Positions 9 to 13,269 of a stretch of 27,131 nucleotides of DNA are shown piece by piece. The position numbers were made by a program, and so were the translations under genes. Numbering within the stretch: the first letter of the stretch is position 1; each line of letters begins with the position of its first letter. The DNA lies in IMG/VR virus record IMGVR_UViG_3300038379_000519, positions 1 through 27,131 of that record. One strand, given 5' to 3'. Below the pieces are notes generated by a model, which made no database searches, was not told where the DNA came from, and saw only the letters and a list, made by a program, of their open reading frames with translations. This DNA is from a virus. Taxonomy: Duplodnaviria > Caudoviricetes.

Positions 9-437
9 GGTGGGCGCGACATGAGTTGGGGAGCAAGGTGCAAGCCGTGATGGTGAAGTAGCGCCCGCGGTGGGGTGGGCGCGACATGAGTTGGGGAGCA
101 AGGTGCAAGAACGGCAAGAGCACGCTACTGGGCACGCTGGTGGGCGCGACATGAGTTGGGGAGCAAGGTGCAAGTGGGCTTGTGGTTTGCCGCAAGCCAC
201 AGGGGTGGGCGCGACATGAGTTGGGGAGCAAGGTGCAAGTGCTGGCCACGAACCACCGGCCGCGGGTGCGGTGGGCGCGACATGAGTTGGGGAGCAAGGT
301 GCAAGCGGGCCGTGGCCGAACCGCCGCGGCGTTCGGGTGGGCGCGACATGAGTTGGGGAGCAAGGTGCAAGTGCGGACGTGAAGCTCGCGGTCCGCGGAC
401 AGGTGGGCGCGACATGAGTTGGGGAGCAAGGTGCAAC
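9..437 (+). CRISPR. CRISPR array A: 7 x 36-nt repeat GGTGGGCGCGACATGAGTTGGGGAGCAAGGTGCAAG, 6 complete spacers of 29-30 nt; probably truncated by the left window edge
   Basis: Repeats at 9, 74, 139, 204, 270, 336, 402. Six are identical and the last ends in C instead of G (trailer-like, suggests + orientation). Unique spacers 45-73, 110-138, 175-203, 240-269, 306-335, 372-401. Confidence 0.95.
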
Positions 438-751
438 TGGAACTACCATGTCTGATTTGCCACGAGCCCGTCGCCTTATCGCGGCGGCGGTTCCTGGCAT
501 TGGTTCGCGCCGGCCGGCGGCCGGTCTGCCGCCGCAACGGCTGTCACCGCTACGCCCGCGAGCGGCGGGGTGCGGCGGAAGACGCGGGGACCGCTCGCGG
601 GTCGGTAGTGCAAGCGCCGACGCACGTTGCGCGCGTGGTGCTGGTGGGCGAGCAGCGTCCGGACAACTGGCCCCACGGATCGCTCGCAAAGGCCCGCGTT
701 CGGCGAATCGTGGCAGGGGGTTGCGGAGACGGGGTCGCAGGGGATGGGTGA
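431..751 (+). CDS. Possible small Cys-containing protein (MQLELPCLICHEPV...VCRRNGCH), starting inside the last repeat of array A
   Basis: GTG at 431 preceded by GGGGAG (421-426) from the repeat. CxxC and CxxxxC pairs in the first 40 codons. The 3' half overlaps the leader of array B, so it may be a remnant. Confidence 0.3.
   Translation: MQLELPCLICHEPVALSRRRFLALVRAGRRPVCRRNGCHRYARERRGAAEDAGTARGSVVQAPTHVARVVLVGEQRPDNWPHGSLAKARVRRIVAGGCGDGVAGDG
555..733 (+). promoter_or_regulatory. Leader of CRISPR array B with tripartite inverted/direct motif
   Basis: Perfect 11-bp inverted repeat CCCGCGAGCGG (555-565) / CCGCTCGCGGG (591-601), plus a third core copy CGCTCGC (681-687) 46 nt before the first repeat. 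Resembles the tripartite motif layout of Cas4-associated (I-C/I-G/V-B-like) leaders. Confidence 0.6.
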
Positions 752-985
752 ACGGGAACGAGGTGCAAGGAGATGACCACGGATGCTGAAGGCAGACCCC
801 GGCCCGAGTCGCAGGGGATGGGTGAACGGGAACGAGGTGCAAGCGTAGCGGCAATGGGTGCGTGACGCTCAACGGCCACGTCGCAGGGGATGGGTGAACG
901 GGAACGAGGTGCAAGAACCGCCAGACGTATGGGCGGATGGAACTGTCGCGGCGCAACGGGTGAATGACTGGGAACGAGGTGCAAG
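734..985 (+). CRISPR. CRISPR array B: 3 identical 36-nt repeats GTCGCAGGGGATGGGTGAACGGGAACGAGGTGCAAG + 1 degenerate terminal repeat; spacers 38, 36, 34 nt
   Basis: Repeats at 734, 808, 880. Degenerate copy at 950-985 has 8 mismatches, all in the first 20 nt, and its last 16 nt are identical. Spacers 770-807, 844-879, 916-949. Confidence 0.9.
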
Positions 986-2823: not shown

Positions 2824-3026
2824 TGCGATTCACGGCCCTCTGTCCGACGTGCCGTGGCCGCGGCCACGGCGACTTTCGCGGGGCCGGCGACATGGACCCC
2901 GGTCTCTGCCACACCTGTGAAGGCAGCGGGGCGGTCATCGCGGACGTGGTGGGACCGGCGGCCCAGTTGACGCCCGCGTTGCTGCCGGTGGCCCAACCGA
3001 TCATTGCCACGGCGGAGACCTACTGA
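2823..3026 (+). CDS. Small zinc-finger protein (two DnaJ-like CxxCxGxG motifs)
   Basis: CPTCRGRG and CHTCEGSG. TGATG coupling at both ends. Confidence 0.7.
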   Translation: MRFTALCPTCRGRGHGDFRGAGDMDPGLCHTCEGSGAVIADVVGPAAQLTPALLPVAQPIIATAETY

Positions 3027-4222
3027 TGTCTGCGATGGACCGGTGCACACTGGGACTGATCCTGTGGCTGGGTCTCACGGCGCAAACCCAAGCCCAACTG
3101 GCCTCTCCCGAGGCGGACCGCCTCTACCGGCAGTCGCTGCCGGCCACCGACGATCCGCGGTGGGAGAAAATCTTCCGCGACCCGGCCACGCTGTTTTACA
3201 CGGACGCGGAAATGCCGCCGGCCTACCAGAAGTGGGACGGCGACCTGCGGGGCGTGCATTCGCCGGCCTACAACATCAGCGCCGACGCCAACGAGCAGGC
3301 CAAGGGGCCGGGCCGCGGCGGCAACGGCAACATCGAATTCCCCTGGCGAGCGCCGGGTGGCACGGATGCGGCCCGGAACGTCGCCACCGTCCGCTTCATG
3401 CGGCTGCCGGACCGCGAGGCCGGCGGCGTGTGGCCGGTGGTCTGGTGGCGGGAGCGGATGCGGGGGGCGAATATCGGCGAAGAGCCGGTCTATCGCTGGC
3501 TGTTCCCGCGCGGGACCGTGTTCGGCGAGGTGCTGACGCTGGCCGATTCCAGCGGCGTGCAGCATACGTTCGAGGTGCGGCTGAGAGTCCGCGAGGCGGA
3601 CTACTGGGATGTGCAGATTCTGCGGCCGTTCCCGACGCGGGCTTCGCTCGCCGCACGCCTGCGGGAATTGCAGGTCGAAAATCACGAGGCGTGGATTGCC
3701 AGCCTGGAGCGGCAGCCCGTGGCCCGGCAGACGCTGCGGGACCGCCTGCATCCGATGAGCGCGTTCGCTGAGCGGGCCGGGTCGCAGGCCCTGCCGCCGA
3801 TGAGCGAACGGTTGGCCGCGGAGCTGCTGGACAGCACGCCGTTTGTGAGCAGCGTCGGCGCGGAATGGGGCGAGCCGGACCAGGACGTGTTTGCGCCGAC
3901 CACGGACCAGACGTTCCACCTCGTCCCGCACGGCTATCAGGCCACGTTTTTGGGCACGGACACCGAGAGTTGCCAGGAGTGCCACAAGCACACGCTGCGG
4001 CACGTGGATACCTTCGACGGCCGGCGGGATTGGTATGGCCGGGTCCGCGGCAGCGACGGCATCTTCACGTTCCACCCGTTCGCCCGCGAGAGCATCAGTC
4101 GCAACGGCTCGCCCTTGACCGTGCGGATGAATGCGCGGCTGGAAGCGGCGGGCATCATCGAGCGGTTCGCGGCGGCCCGGCATCCGGCCGACGTCTACCG
4201 CAGGAGAATCGTGCCACAATGA
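3026..4222 (+). CDS. Secreted protein with single CxxCH (c-type haem-binding) motif
   Basis: Signal peptide (LGLILWLGLTAQTQA), CQECH near the C-terminus, 398 aa, strong coding bias. Confidence 0.75.
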   Translation: MSAMDRCTLGLILWLGLTAQTQAQLASPEADRLYRQSLPATDDPRWEKIFRDPATLFYTDAEMPPAYQKWDGDLRGVHSPAYNISADANEQAKGPGRGGNGNIEFPWRAPGGTDAARNVATVRFMRLPDREAGGVWPVVWWRERMRGANIGEEPVYRWLFPRGTVFGEVLTLADSSGVQHTFEVRLRVREADYWDVQILRPFPTRASLAARLRELQVENHEAWIASLERQPVARQTLRDRLHPMSAFAERAGSQALPPMSERLAAELLDSTPFVSSVGAEWGEPDQDVFAPTTDQTFHLVPHGYQATFLGTDTESCQECHKHTLRHVDTFDGRRDWYGRVRGSDGIFTFHPFARESISRNGSPLTVRMNARLEAAGIIERFAAARHPADVYRRRIVPQ

Positions 4223-6047: not shown

Positions 6048-6529
6048 CGTTGGCCCTGCTGCTCCTGGCGTTCGCCGCTCCCGACGAGGCGGACATTGTA
6101 CGGGGCCGCGTGATCGCGGTCATCGACGGCGACACGCTCGACCTCGAGGCCCCGGGGCGGACCGTGCGGGTGCGGCTCGCGGAGATCGACGCCCCCGAGA
6201 AGTCGCAGCCGTGGGGCAGGGAGGCCCACAAGCATCTGGAGCGGCTGGTGAAGGGCGAGTGGCTGCGGCTGGTGGTAACCCAGGCCAACGAGCGTTGGGG
6301 CCGGCTGGTGGGCCACGTGTACCTAGAAAAGAAAGAGGGCCGGCCCAAGGAAGTGTGGGTCAATCTGGAACTGGTCAAGCAAGGGTCGGCAGTCTGGGCG
6401 ATTGACTGGTCAAACGATGTGCGGTTGGCGAGGGCCGAGCGGATGGCATGGATCGAAAGGAAAGGACTCTGGGCTGAAGACCGGCCAACAATGCCGTGGG
6501 AGTTCCGTCGCAAGAAAACGGCAGAGTGA
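6044..6529 (+). CDS. Thermonuclease (staphylococcal nuclease-like) with N-terminal hydrophobic segment
   Basis: VIDGDTL, VRLAEIDAPE..QPWG.EA, RWGRLVGHV, VNLELVKQG, KGLW...PWEFR. GTG overlaps the previous stop. Confidence 0.92.
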   Translation: MTLALLLLAFAAPDEADIVRGRVIAVIDGDTLDLEAPGRTVRVRLAEIDAPEKSQPWGREAHKHLERLVKGEWLRLVVTQANERWGRLVGHVYLEKKEGRPKEVWVNLELVKQGSAVWAIDWSNDVRLARAERMAWIERKGLWAEDRPTMPWEFRRKKTAE

Positions 6530-6711
6530 AATGCCCACGCGCAGTTGTAGCTGCCGTGGGCGCGGTCAACCCTATCTTGGAGGGCCAACGGCGAGCGTTG
6601 ACTGGACGGGGTTGGTGTAGGAAGTGCGAAACGCCGGAATGTCGCCGTACGGGAGAACGCTGCACGTGGAGGCCGGGGCATGGACGAATACCGGGTCAAG
6701 CCGCGGCATAA
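6526..6711 (+). CDS. Small Cys-containing hypothetical protein
   Basis: GTGA overlap with the nuclease stop, CRKC-x4-C-x6-C. Atypical codon usage. Confidence 0.4.
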   Translation: MKCPRAVVAAVGAVNPILEGQRRALTGRGWCRKCETPECRRTGERCTWRPGHGRIPGQAAA

Positions 6712-6877
6712 CCGGTGGGTCATCACGGACGAGGAGGGCTACCCGGCCTTGGCCCGCGACCTGTTTGACGAGTTCCACGCCCGGCAGATCGCGGAGTTGC
6801 TGAACCGCGACCTGGCGCGGGAACTGAATCATGGTCAGGCCATCTTGGATCGAATGCGGCGGGCGGACCATAGCTGA
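6680..6877 (+). CDS. Hypothetical protein (65 aa)
   Basis: SD GGAGG upstream of ATG, good codon bias. Confidence 0.65.
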   Translation: MDEYRVKPRHNRWVITDEEGYPALARDLFDEFHARQIAELLNRDLARELNHGQAILDRMRRADHS

Positions 6878-6886
6878 GTGAGACGC

Positions 6887-7324
6887 ATGAAACTCCTGCT
6901 CGTGGAAGATAGCCAGGTTTCGCAGGCCGCGTTCAGCGCGGCCCTGGAGGAGTTCTACCACTCGCAATACCCCACCGTGGAAATTGCCGGCACGCTGGCC
7001 GATGCACACGCGATGGTCCACGCCGCCGACGTGCTGGTGTTGGACCTGACCCTACCGGACGCCGACGCGGACGAGATGATGGCCTTTGCCCGCAAGTGGA
7101 TTCACTTGAAGCCGGTCATCATCATCAGCGGCACGGAGGAGGACCGGTACATTATCGAGGCCGGCGCAATTGGGGCGGGCTTTCTCCGCAAGACGTGCGT
7201 CAGTTGCCAGCAAGCCGAAATGCTGCGGATCGAATTACTGCGGGCGCAAGGGGCGCTCCAAGCCAAACGGGAGAAACGCGAGCTGGTCCACGATTTCATC
7301 CGCGTGCTGGGGAGCCACACTTGA
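6887..7324 (+). CDS. Stand-alone response-regulator receiver (CheY-like) protein
   Basis: KLLLVEDS, DVLVLDLTLPD (phospho-acceptor Asp), PVIIISG, GFLRK. Short helical tail, no output domain. Confidence 0.88.
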   Translation: MKLLLVEDSQVSQAAFSAALEEFYHSQYPTVEIAGTLADAHAMVHAADVLVLDLTLPDADADEMMAFARKWIHLKPVIIISGTEEDRYIIEAGAIGAGFLRKTCVSCQQAEMLRIELLRAQGALQAKREKRELVHDFIRVLGSHT

Positions 7325-7733: not shown

Positions 7734-7874
7734 AACACGGCATGGCCGCCGTTAGGGGGCACGGACGCCCCCGACCTGCCAAGCGCAGGCAACCCCTGTG
7801 CGACGGCGCGACACCTGCGCCGGGGACAACAAGTGGTGTGACGGCCCGGAGAGACGGGCTTGTGTGAGGTGACC

Positions 7875-8318
7875 ATGATCCGCGTGCGGAAGAGAACACG
7901 CACCGAGGTGGCGGCGAACCACGAGGCCCTGCTGACGGCCAGTGTGGCGGAGCTGCGCCTGCCCCAGCGGATCGTGAACTACCTGGAGGAGGCGGGCTAC
8001 CACACCGTGGGCCAGTGCCTGGCGGCCACGCCGGATCAACTGCTGGCGATCCCACTGTTTGGCCGCGGCCTGCTGAGGCAGCTCCAGGAGTGCATCCGCG
8101 AGGTGCTGCGGACCGGCCGGCTGCCCGAGGCCGGGGAGGACGAACCGAGCCGCGCGCCGGCCCCGACGCCGGAGGAAATCCGCGACCGCTGCCGAGCGAT
8201 CCGAGCAGGGTGGCCGGTGAACGACCCCCGGCAACGCAAGGGCGTGGTGCCGCTCGTGCCGCGGCCGGTGCGGATCGCGTTTGACGAACCGCGGCAACAG
8301 GGAGGCCGGCTGCGATGA
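7875..8318 (+). CDS. RNA polymerase alpha-subunit C-terminal domain-like protein
   Basis: VAELRLPQRIVNYLEEAGYHTVGQCLAATPDQLLAIPLFGRGLL aligns without gaps to the alpha-CTD consensus (VDDLELTVRSANCLK...IGDLV...LLKTPNLGKKSL). SD GAGGT. Confidence 0.8.
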   Translation: MIRVRKRTRTEVAANHEALLTASVAELRLPQRIVNYLEEAGYHTVGQCLAATPDQLLAIPLFGRGLLRQLQECIREVLRTGRLPEAGEDEPSRAPAPTPEEIRDRCRAIRAGWPVNDPRQRKGVVPLVPRPVRIAFDEPRQQGGRLR

Positions 8319-10795: not shown

Positions 10796-12976
10796 GTGCC
10801 GACATTAGACGACATCCGCAAGGCGAAACGCGAGCTGGACCGCAAGGTCCGCGAGGCCGAGCGGCTGGCCGGCGTCAAGACGTCCTACCGCGACCGGCAA
10901 TCCGACATCCTGACGGCCAAGCGGCGGGCCGAGCGGATCGTCATGGTCCCGGCCTGTGCGGACCCCGAGCGCCGGGCGCGACTGGAGGCCGACGACATCG
11001 CTTGGCTGATGTGGTACTTTGCGCCGGAGAGCGGCTGCGAGACGCCGTTCACTTACGATTTCACGTTTCAGCAGCGGGAGATGATCGCGGCGATTCGCCA
11101 TGCCATCGAGTACGGCGGCGACCAGTCGCTGGCCGCGTCACGCGGCGAAGGCAAAACCACGCTCTTCGAGCGGATGCTGCTCAAGTACACGCTCACGGGC
11201 CGGATCAAGTTCTCCGTGCTGCTCCAGGCAACCGGGGCCGCAGCGGCCGATTCCCTGGAGGCGATCAAGTGGGAGTGCGAAACAAACGACCGGCTACACG
11301 CGGACTATCCCGAGGTGTGCGTGCCGGTCCGGGCGCTGGAAAACACGCCGCAGCGGGCACACACGCAGCTTGCCAGCGGTAATCGACCGGACAACGGGCA
11401 AGCCTTCGAGGCGGCGACAACAAAGTTCTTATGGTGTGGGCAGGAGATTACCTTTCCCAAGGTTCCCGGCTCGCTGTCAGCCGGGGCCATTATCGCAACG
11501 CGCGGCCTCGATTCCGCGATTCGCGGGATCAAGAAGCGTGGCCGGCGGCCGGACGTGGTCGGCATTGACGATCCCGACACGGAGGAAACGGCCCGCAGCC
11601 AGGAGCAGTCCCAAAAGCTTGAAGACCGCATCGACAGAACCATCGCGGCGCTAGGCGGCCAGAAACGGCGGGTGGCTCGCGTGATGCTGACGACGCTCCA
11701 GAATCGCACCTGTGTCAGCTATCGGTTCACGGATTCGCAGGCCAAGCCGTCGTGGCATCCGCGGCGGTTCAAGTTTCTCGTTCGCCGGCCGGACCGGATG
11801 GACTTGTGGGGCCGGTACGTGGAGCTGCGGAAGGAGGACTGGCGGAACGTGAGCGCGGGTGTGCCAACGGCTGCGGCCCACGAGTTCTACGTGCTGCACC
11901 GAGAGGAAATGGACGCCGGCGCCGAGGTCGCCAATCCGAACCGCTACACGCAGGGCGAGCTATCGGCGCTCCAGTTCTACTTCGACGAGGTTGCGCGGAT
12001 CGGCCAAGAGGCAGTCGCCACCGAGTACGATAACGACCCGCCGGACGTGGTGGAGTTGTCGGAGATGCTCTCGGCCTCCCAAATCGCCGCCAAGCTCAAC
12101 GGATATCCGCGCGGCCTGGTCCCGAGCGACGCCACACACGTCACGGCATTCATCGACGTTCAGCAGCGGTTGCTGTACTACGCGGTGTGCGCGTGGCGGC
12201 AGGACTTCACGGGCTACGTGATCGAGTACGGCGCCTGGCCGAAACAGGACCGCAGCTATTTCACCCTGGGTGATGCTGCGCCCGCGATTCCAGATGTCTG
12301 CCGCGGTGGGCTGGAGGCGGGAATTCACGCGGCACTGGACTCCCTAACGTCGGACATCTGCGGGCGGCCGTGGCCCGTGGACGGTGGCGGCGAGCAAAAG
12401 ATCAGTCGCTGTCTGATCGACGCTAACTGGGGCCAGAGCACCAGTACGGTTTACGCGTTCGTGCGGCAGTCGCTGCATGCCGCAGTGTTGCTTCCGACGC
12501 ATGGCCGCGGCGTCAGGGCCTCGCAATCGCCGATCATGCTGTGGCAGAAAAAGCAGGGCGAGCAAGTCGGACTGAATTGGCGGGTGCGGCGCACCACCGA
12601 GAGCCGAGCTCCGGTGCGGCATGGAATTTACGATACGAATTTCTGGAAGAGCTTTCTGCATCAACGGCTCTACGTGCCGCTGGGTGGTTCGGGCTGCCTG
12701 TCGCTGTTCAAGGCGGAGCCTGCGGCGCATCGCATGCTGGCCGATCACCTGCATGCAGAGTACCCAGTTTCTGTCGAAAGCCTCGGTCGCAAGGTCAGCG
12801 AGTGGCAGGTACGGCCGAATCACCCGGATAACCACTGGTTCGACTGCCTGGTGGGCTGCGCCGTGGCGGCTTCTATCGAGGGTTGTTCCCTGAAAGAGTC
12901 CGCCGAGGTCCGCGAGCCGCGGCGGGAACGCAAGACGCTGGCGGAAATGGCGGCACAAGCGAGGGCTGGTCGATGA
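10796..12976 (+). CDS. Terminase large subunit (GpA-type nuclease domain)
   Basis: Walker A ASRGEGKTT, Walker B VGIDDPDT, nuclease FIDVQ, LIDANWG, DNHWFDCLV. Position upstream of portal. Confidence 0.9.
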   Translation: MPTLDDIRKAKRELDRKVREAERLAGVKTSYRDRQSDILTAKRRAERIVMVPACADPERRARLEADDIAWLMWYFAPESGCETPFTYDFTFQQREMIAAIRHAIEYGGDQSLAASRGEGKTTLFERMLLKYTLTGRIKFSVLLQATGAAAADSLEAIKWECETNDRLHADYPEVCVPVRALENTPQRAHTQLASGNRPDNGQAFEAATTKFLWCGQEITFPKVPGSLSAGAIIATRGLDSAIRGIKKRGRRPDVVGIDDPDTEETARSQEQSQKLEDRIDRTIAALGGQKRRVARVMLTTLQNRTCVSYRFTDSQAKPSWHPRRFKFLVRRPDRMDLWGRYVELRKEDWRNVSAGVPTAAAHEFYVLHREEMDAGAEVANPNRYTQGELSALQFYFDEVARIGQEAVATEYDNDPPDVVELSEMLSASQIAAKLNGYPRGLVPSDATHVTAFIDVQQRLLYYAVCAWRQDFTGYVIEYGAWPKQDRSYFTLGDAAPAIPDVCRGGLEAGIHAALDSLTSDICGRPWPVDGGGEQKISRCLIDANWGQSTSTVYAFVRQSLHAAVLLPTHGRGVRASQSPIMLWQKKQGEQVGLNWRVRRTTESRAPVRHGIYDTNFWKSFLHQRLYVPLGGSGCLSLFKAEPAAHRMLADHLHAEYPVSVESLGRKVSEWQVRPNHPDNHWFDCLVGCAVAASIEGCSLKESAEVREPRRERKTLAEMAAQARAGR

Positions 12977-13269
12977 GCGGCAAGGAGGCCAAGACGTTGG
13001 CCGAGCTGGCGGCGATTGCCGCGGGCCGGCAGCCGCAGCAGATCGCGGGCAAGCCGGCGGACGTTTGTCCCTACTGCGGCTGCGCGATGTTCGCCCACGG
13101 CACGCGGCAGGGCGAGCAGATGACGTTCCGCTACGTCCATTGCCGGAATCCGCAGTGCGGCCGGCGGTTCATGTCGAAGCAACCTCCGGCCACGCTGGTG
13201 CGTGAAATCTCCGAACTACCGTCCAGTTCTGGACAGTCCGCCTTACAGGTGTTCCGCGGGTCCGCCTAA
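12973..13269 (+). CDS. Ogr/Delta-like zinc-ribbon protein
   Basis: CPYCG...RYVHCRNPQCGRRF. ATGA overlap. Confidence 0.7.
   Translation: MSGKEAKTLAELAAIAAGRQPQQIAGKPADVCPYCGCAMFAHGTRQGEQMTFRYVHCRNPQCGRRFMSKQPPATLVREISELPSSSGQSALQVFRGSA

Follow-up and report, generated by a model that had tools for sequence, protein, structure and literature searches.

Two cas-less CRISPR arrays on a tailed-phage contig and a probable link, through a common repeat end, to TnpB-like type V nucleases

Which effector could make use of CRISPR arrays that are carried by a phage contig without any recognisable cas gene? The question is raised by IMG/VR record IMGVR_UViG_3300038379_000519, a linear contig of 27,131 bp which was analysed in its whole length (hereafter the window), which CheckV estimates to be 59% complete, and at the left end of which lie two arrays, A and B, whose 36-nucleotide (nt) repeats share only their last 16 nt. 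We favour, with a probability of roughly 0.55, the reading in which both arrays guide one small TnpB-derived type V nuclease (Cas12f/Cas12n/TranC-like) by way of this shared handle, the nuclease itself not being encoded in the window. A type V-like reading is supported because arrays with repeats ending in GGTGCAA[G/C], as these do, adjoin TnpB/Cas12f-like nucleases in two other phage loci.

Two arrays with a common repeat end

The left end of the window is laid out as follows.

1–8, + strand: remnant of a spacer that is truncated at the edge of the contig, from the repeat scan; the record starts here
9–437, + strand: CRISPR array A, seven copies of a 36-nt repeat and six spacers of 29–30 nt
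402–437, + strand: last repeat of array A, with C rather than G as its final base; also present on the public contig reaching 763
438–733, + strand: inter-array stretch of 296 nt, the presumed leader of array B
431–751, + strand: open reading frame (ORF) of 106 amino acids (aa) across the inter-array stretch, with CxxC...CxxxxC at its start; coding status doubtful
734–985, + strand: CRISPR array B, three identical 36-nt repeats plus a degenerate terminal repeat, with three spacers
950–985, + strand: degenerate terminal repeat of array B, its first 20 nt diverged and its last 16 nt intact
986–1083, + strand: flank from array B to the DNA methyltransferase gene (1084–2163), with no anti-repeat beyond chance

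Repeat A (GGTGGGCGCGACATGAGTTGGGGAGCAAGGTGCAAG) starts at positions 9, 74, 139, 204, 270, 336 and 402, with successive spacers of 29, 29, 29, 30, 30 and 30 nt and periods of 65–66, and repeat B (GTCGCAGGGGATGGGTGAACGGGAACGAGGTGCAAG) starts at 734, 808 and 880 in identical copies, with spacers of 38, 36 and 34 nt and periods of 70–74. At least three near-identical direct repeats of 23–55 nt at regular spacing, the generic mark of such arrays, are thus found in both, and among the nine spacers, which are similar in length within each array, no two are alike; both are genuine CRISPR arrays. Public contigs of one DNA run match 402–763 and 814–909 without differences, and because they cover 402–763 the array junction is independently confirmed. 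Bases 1–8 are the tail of an earlier spacer and therefore array A continues to the left, the assembly having broken inside it.

The first-pass annotation, made from the sequence, had described two distinct 36-nt repeats with a common 3' 16-mer, and this description stands. The two repeats are identical at 8/20 of their first 20 positions and then run into the common 16-nt end, GGGARCRAGGTGCAAG, which is carried by 11 of the 11 repeats, with a final C in the last A copy. The 16-mer GGGARCRAGGTGCAAS has 11 exact sites in the window, every one of them a + strand repeat end, and at up to three mismatches outside the repeats there are three 3-mismatch sites, against 2.44 expected from shuffles. The A/G swaps noted within the 16-mer are borne out, both differences between A and B being purine-for-purine, and so is the retention of exactly these 16 nt by the degenerate B copy, which as a whole is 78% identical to repeat B. 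The repeats had also been described as not palindromic, and on both strands neither folds better than shuffles (z from -0.77 to +1.44). The unequal spacer lengths, 29–30 nt in A and 34–38 nt in B, were likewise correctly described.

Nuclease-adjacent arrays with the same end

When IMG/VR was scanned for GGTGCAAG in three spaced copies, 75 stretches came up, and the five most array-like of these were inspected. The only CRISPR array among the five lies at locus L329, on contig IMGVR_UViG_3300037317_000025 (termed L402 when oriented with its nuclease gene on the + strand); the others were rejected, L344, L382 and L328 as tandem repeats with 31–33-nt periods and L366 on account of its repeated 'spacers', despite periods of 66–75 nt. 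The L329 array holds eight copies of a 37-nt repeat at a period of 71–75, which on the nuclease strand reads GTTGCAATGGTCAATGCGCGGTTGAGCAGGGTGCAAG, starting GTTGCAATGG and ending GAGCAGGGTGCAAG. Its last 14 nt match repeat A at 13/14 positions and, beyond the 8-mer used in the search, the six preceding bases match at 5/6 (chance about 0.005 by our own arithmetic). When repeats A, B and L329 are compared, the last 13 nt differ at three columns, all purine-for-purine. Such changes fit the U-containing pairing partner proposed in the first-pass annotation, but they could equally reflect ordinary transition bias.

Directly upstream of this array and on the same strand is a nuclease ORF of 597 aa, the true start of which is probably about 100 codons in (near position 5305 of L402). 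It matches the Pfam domains Cas12f1-like_TNB (2e-21) and OrfB_IS605 (1e-15), and NCBIfam guided_TnpB at 3e-60, above cut-off. The family to which it belongs comprises 31 protein clusters among 5.8 billion, with members at E <= 1.5e-64 and the next match at 1e-37; in the family alignment D308 and E408 are invariant and D506 nearly so, and these residues may form the RuvC triad. With the family profile, near-equal matches were obtained to ISDra2 TnpB (8h1j, 7e-37, full length) and to chain 9j09 (7.6e-37).

The first-pass annotation had proposed a type V-like system, with repeats of a kind typical of type V-F but with no subtype fixed. Type V-F effectors are compact RuvC nucleases with a guide handle that comes from the repeat 3' end, and their repeats are unstructured, about 36–37 nt long, with GTTGCA-like starts and ...TGCAAC-like ends. 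The broader proposal gains support from the L329 and L403 arrays (the latter described below), which adjoin nucleases on the same strand, whereas V-F proper is not supported: the linked nucleases score as guided_TnpB and stay under the curated thresholds for Cas12f2 (65 of 450 bits for the L329 nuclease) and for C2c8 (112 of 350 bits), and solved Cas12f chains are matched weakly by the family profile, at E 1e-15 or worse. A parallel is found in intermediates of the TranC/Cas12n type, described as TnpB-sized nucleases with short arrays (3–20 copies of 32–38-nt repeats) and no adaptation genes nearby, some of them on Caudoviricetes genomes, and among which 9j09 is named Cas12n (bioRxiv 10.64898/2026.03.27.714800). 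The L329 family resembles these in its near-equal matches to ISDra2 TnpB and 9j09, the profile being assignable to no named TranC clade, whereas the window differs from TranC/Cas12n loci in having arrays only, with no effector to class.

The second locus, L403 (IMGVR_UViG_3300037317_000075), was found through protein homology (35% identity) and not through its repeat. It encodes a nuclease of 478 aa with the same domains and, about 540 bases downstream, an array with five copies of the 37-nt repeat GTTGCAGCGGTATCTGGTGAGGCAATGCGGGTGCAAC, with GTTGCAGCGG at its start and GCGGGTGCAAC at its end; the C that closes this repeat is also the final base of the last A repeat of the window. The end ...RGGTGCAA[G/C] beside the spacer is therefore common to 11 of 11 window repeats and to L329 and L403, and it is on this basis that we would place the window arrays in a GGTGCAA[G/C]-ending L329/L403 repeat family. 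Array B is like these relatives in the 5' and 3' ends of its repeat and in the length of its spacers, array A in the 3' end only: the start of repeat B (GTCGCAGGGG) is identical to that of L403 at 8/10 positions, the 34–38-nt spacers of array B compare with 34–38 nt at L402 and 35–37 nt at L403, and of a GTYGCAG start and 34–38-nt spacers array B has both and array A, with its different 5' 20 nt and its 29–30-nt spacers, neither. More generally, both loci are like the window in their repeats of 36–37 nt, unstructured by eye and ending GGTGCAA[G/C], in their setting on tailed phages of 60–67% GC and in the degenerate repeat at the distal end of the array. They are unlike it in having a nuclease upstream of the array and, at L403, scaffold-like small RNAs, and each has one array where the window has two, a third being likely further to the left.

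The relatives also settle which end of the repeat is which. At L402 the real start codon of the nuclease gene has a promoter-like site (10/12, TG-extended) ahead of it, and at both L402 and L403 a terminator-like element of a hairpin and a T-run follows the last, degenerate repeat on the nuclease strand; because these signals fix the transcription strand, ...GGTGCAAS is for this repeat family the 3' end of the repeat, next to the spacer as in type V guides. This bears on a type II reading, in which the arrays would be transcribed from the - strand, the 16-mer would be the 5' part of the repeat, pairing with a host trans-activating CRISPR RNA (tracrRNA), and a host Cas9 would be the effector. 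Array A does have the classic geometry of 36-nt repeats and 30-nt spacers, the repeats are unstructured, and it is with the spacer-adjacent portion of the repeat, again the 16-mer, that a tracrRNA pairs. However, the transcription signals at L329 and L403 place the same repeat end the other way round, the degenerate repeat would fall at the start of transcription with all neighbouring genes running the other way, and the window has neither a Cas9 nor an anti-repeat on either strand. The 34–38-nt spacers of array B are also unusual for type II, and we regard such a system as very unlikely.

On the favoured reading arrays A and B are likely to be transcribed rightward, which fits both the + strand position of every likely gene in the window and the degenerate repeat at the right end of array B. 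The transcripts are predicted to be cut into guide RNAs with the shared repeat end as their 5' handle, and this handle would load one small TnpB-derived type V nuclease. Only the 13–16-nt 3' handle would matter for loading, so that both arrays could serve one effector, and the guides would then direct DNA cutting of rival mobile elements or of host genes. The source of the nuclease would be the missing ~40% of the phage or else the host, at roughly even odds. The tracrRNA dependence and the single effector for both arrays that the first-pass annotation put forward are conjectural.

Partner RNAs were looked for in the relatives. L403 carries two copies (84% identical) of a scaffold-like element of about 120 nt, at 6423–6544 and 6770–6891, each preceded by a TATAAT-like or TACAAT-like box; copy 1 has a terminator hairpin at its end, which copy 2 keeps through a compensatory change. 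Copy 2 runs into a stretch that can pair with repeat positions 1–34 at -37.2 kcal/mol, a value matched by 8/300 shuffles, and this stretch is a weak candidate for an anti-repeat. The conserved core of the element is present twice in L403 and also inside the 3' end of the L402 nuclease ORF, an arrangement that resembles the scaffold of TnpB guide RNAs. A scan with the scaffold motif found only the contig of L329, its gap limits having excluded L403. No convincing anti-repeat was found at L402, where a 13-nt candidate, complete if G-U pairs are allowed and situated upstream of the nuclease start, was rejected as part of the divergent promoter/ribosome-binding region and probably due to chance. 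Among 123 proteins compared, none has a C-terminal peptide that would run into a repeat.

Some further features of these loci may be recorded. At L402 (5269–7346) the nuclease and its array form a compact CRISPR module adjoining a divergently oriented T4-type terminase gene, the eight repeats starting at the last codons of the nuclease ORF, and neither cas1 nor cas2 was found among the ORFs scanned there; at L403 (4998–7406) nuclease and array are inserted between the terminase and portal genes. The C-termini of the family (P0004–P0034 and the L402 nuclease) show by eye, in 12 of 32 cases, a motif of the type Q-[LIE]-x-[LFM]-[FD], for example ...QLSLDL, ...QLSLFDDI and ...YQLHMFDE, which we take to resemble the bacterial sliding-clamp-binding motif; nucleases of this family might thus dock on the replication clamp. 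Eight of 80 TnpB-like loci screened were flagged, and five of these (L402, L403, L414, L436 and L437) were inspected while L439, L477 and L481 were not. L414 (6928–7425), L436 (1304–1777) and L437 (6276–6637) have arrays of 6–8 repeats just downstream of generic TnpB-like genes; they are AT-richer phage contigs, their TnpB-like proteins are 24–28% identical to the L329 nuclease and their repeats end differently (...ATACAAAC, ...GTACTAAAG).

Searches for an effector, a host system and targets

The absence of any cas gene from the window, as the first-pass annotation had it, was upheld by every search made. No cas or TnpB domain was found by Pfam or PHROGs among the 36 ORFs of the window, and six-frame searches of the record gave no match to Cas9 (TIGR01865), to guided_TnpB (for which the control was positive in 11/14 genomes) or to the L329 nuclease family. 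A TnpB/Cas12f-like gene is thus absent from these 27 kb, which, with an array at the very edge of the record, represent part of the phage. The RNA partners were sought as well: the window has no antisense copy of the repeat end within three mismatches, no match to an anti-repeat pattern tolerant of G-U pairs outside the arrays and no combination of the scaffold RNA core (GCGCAGGGAGG...GTCTGCT...GAACTGCGAA), and repeat duplexes did not rise above the genome background, or beyond shuffles in the array flanks.

A glimpse of what may lie further left is given by a public contig of 2,145 nt from the one DNA run listed as containing the window, for which no RNA run was listed. Letters 7–27/28 of this contig correspond, but for one difference, to the 3' part of an A-type repeat, the next 1,755 letters are placed nowhere in the window, and what follows is window 402–763 exactly, no other piece falling on a repeat. 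On our reading the assembler has collapsed array A and the 1,755 bases would be its upstream flank, in which case the diverged repeat that precedes them is probably the end of a third array. A gene of as many as about 580 codons would fit into these bases. As the 106-aa ORF is recorded on a contig of exactly 2,145 nt, the proteins of the contig are in the searched database, and for none of the 31 clusters of the L329-type family is 2,145 nt the length given for the longest contig, representatives and longest contigs being what is visible of each cluster. The effector may belong to another family, or be encoded elsewhere in the missing ~40% of the phage, or be the host's.

Wider searches were made for the repeat end. 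In viral contigs the exact 16-mer gave 24 single, chance-like matches and no arrays, and a full scan of Joint Genome Institute (JGI) metagenome contigs for two spaced copies of its first 15 bases gave 0 matches. Three copies of the loose pattern GGTGCAAS, sought in 5/64 parts of the genome contigs, returned nothing resembling A or B and mostly GTTGCACC...ATTGAAAC arrays on the other strand. Three copies of AGGTGCAAG in 21/64 parts of the metagenomes led to satellites, to repeats of a collagen-like kind and to a single class 1-like array (L239), and from three copies of GGTGCAAC in 7/64 parts of the viral contigs the filter kept L567, which is L403's own contig, and L555, a 3-copy match left uninspected. 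A GGTGCAAC-ending repeat of Bifidobacterium (L113) was dropped as CRISPR since it matches itself on both strands; that the genome has no A1-family gene was a further reason. In the literature, supplements lying outside the search, the repeat words occurred only in primers and unrelated sequences.

In the metagenome array at L239 (10001–11286) two different 32-nt repeats, CTTGCACCTTACTCGTGTGTGAGAATTGAAAC and CTTTTGTCTTACCCGTGTTCGGGAATTGAAAC, are interleaved in one run with only the end GAATTGAAAC in common, a case of mixed repeats with a common handle in class 1 style.

Virus-borne mini-arrays without cas genes are known (PMC6858448; PMC11656645), mostly for class 1 systems of archaeal and bacterial hosts, and in the type of case described by Medvedeva et al. 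(2019) the repeats match class 1 arrays of the host and the spacers match related viruses (PMC6858448). The arrays of the window could belong to a host type I or type III system, with a Cas6 cut leaving the 8-nt GGUGCAAG as 5' handle and the phage making use of a multi-subunit effector of the host, and host service of this kind is the documented case for cas-less virus arrays (PMC6858448). In class 1, 34–38-nt spacers are found and repeats may lack structure, the + strand would again be the one transcribed, and many of the arrays found in our searches, L239 among them, have GTTGCACC or CTTGCACC at their start on the other strand and ATTGAAAC at their end; because class 1-like arrays such as L239 carry the 8-mer, it is not by itself specific to a type. 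However, the window repeats have on neither strand the ATTGAAAS-type end of those arrays, their common block of 16 nt is twice the length of a class 1 handle, and the parts that Cas6 would bind differ between A and B. Moreover, the arrays found with the same 13–14-nt end all adjoin TnpB-like nucleases, and a class 1 system seems to us unlikely. What the window shares with the known virus-borne mini-arrays is the lack of cas genes and an effector presumed to act in trans; it differs in that no host array or target was found, in a repeat end which points to a type V family and in two repeat types with only the handle in common.

The spacers gave little guidance as to the targets. Searches that needed near-exact matches, in limited collections, found none beyond chance in the rest of the window, in 53 loci with related terminases, in the other loci compared, in GenBank phages or in PLSDB plasmids. 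Spacer A2 (110–138) reads in frame as NGKSTLLGT, a Walker A motif, and has matches of 88–93% over 29–35 nt, at chance level (E 0.08–0.9), in the Walker A region of genes for ABC-type ATPases from replicons of Cupriavidus, Pseudoroseomonas and Rhodobacter; its source is probably an ABC-type ATPase gene in a GC-rich genome.

That no target was found would also suit arrays with a non-cutting role, in which Racr-like or CRISPR RNA (crRNA)-like transcripts act as decoys or regulators that absorb or redirect a host effector and so protect the phage. Inhibition or hijacking of host Cas proteins by phage-borne mini-arrays and repeat units has been described (PMC10651486; bioRxiv 10.1101/2024.10.29.618823), and the conservation of the handle in an otherwise degenerate last repeat would fit such a role. 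Missing targets are nevertheless weak evidence when searches are near-exact and collections limited, and at least nine unique, regular spacers in two arrays, one of which extends beyond the contig end, look like the product of real spacer acquisition and exceed what a decoy would require, so that we think a decoy or regulatory function quite unlikely.

The assignment to a TnpB-derived type V nuclease should itself be considered with caution, as several observations weigh against it. The window holds no nuclease, scaffold RNA or anti-repeat, and an L329-type gene directly upstream of array A is disfavoured, if weakly, by the cluster listing. The tie to L329 and L403 consists of repeat ends only (13–16 nt), and in the case of L329 that end was itself the search pattern. 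The 5' start of the family is missing from repeat A, the uniform 29–30-nt spacers of which are unlike those of the relatives. One sample series is the source of both L329 and L403, the phages of which, with T4-type terminases as opposed to the lambda GpA-type of the window, are unrelated to this one. Finally, no host system was seen, arrays with the paired 16-mer being found in neither JGI metagenome nor viral contigs, and with no spacer target there could be no check on the protospacer-adjacent motif (PAM) side.

Phage context and what the arrays may mean

The contig is that of a tailed phage, as the first-pass annotation had assumed. When the 36 ORFs were scanned with Pfam and PHROGs, a lambda GpA-type large terminase (10796–12976), a portal, a protease-capsid fusion, a decoration protein, a head-tail joining protein and a tape measure were found, together with the DNA methyltransferase (1084–2163), for which no relatives were found, a staphylococcal-type nuclease, a ParB-methylase and a DUF5131 protein. 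Unusual regulatory cargo is encoded at 6878–7324, a stand-alone response-regulator receiver domain protein (2e-08), and at 7860–8318, a protein that has the C-terminal domain of RNA polymerase alpha (2.3e-08). A lead to the host is offered by a 398-aa protein (3026–4222) without a Pfam or PHROG match, which has a signal-peptide-like start and a CQECH (CxxCH) heme-binding-like motif and for which the nearest cluster by language model and structure is mainly Planctomycetota; its gene is possibly host-derived.

In the 296 nt between the arrays no promoter-like site, no structure beyond shuffles (z = +0.31), no Rfam match at gathering score or at E <= 1 and no anti-repeat was found. It is doubtful that the 106-aa ORF is coding because no relatives were found, the sole database match being an identical sequence on the 2,145-nt contig, and the ORF departs from the GC pattern by codon position that is typical of this genome.

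Among the 53 terminase relatives examined only L181 was found to have a mini-array, the repeat of which is unrelated to A or B; L013 was also flagged by the array filter and left uninspected. In L181, whose terminase is 43% identical to that of the window, the four repeats lie at 12929–13186, about 830 bases downstream of the terminase gene, and the repeat of about 36 nt has palindromic CCCGCAG...CTGCGGG ends.

CRISPR arrays on phages without cas genes were known already. What is new here is the co-occurrence of two repeat types with only the handle in common and, as far as comparison of sequences allows, a repeat end that probably ties cas-less phage arrays to TnpB-sized type V nucleases and not to class 1. 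A bolder proposal, which we put forward as doubtful, is that the phage holds a battery of at least two and probably three arrays with different repeats and a common 13–16-nt handle only, and that a TnpB-sized nuclease reads just this handle, either through a wobble-tolerant, U-rich partner RNA or through purine-specific protein contacts. Were this so, the phage could pool guides from different arrays for one miniature effector, borrowed or self-encoded, and some of the guides may be aimed at cellular genes, as the Walker A sequence of spacer A2 would suggest.

A small TnpB-derived type V nuclease as the effector of these arrays would tie cas-less virus arrays to the smallest, TnpB-like type V nucleases, the group now discussed as the transition from transposon to CRISPR. 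The effector-bearing loci L329 and L403 provide concrete material for testing this. If confirmed, the arrays would define by natural example the minimum that such a nuclease requires of a repeat, which would be useful for guide design, and would mean that phages stock guides for miniature effectors.

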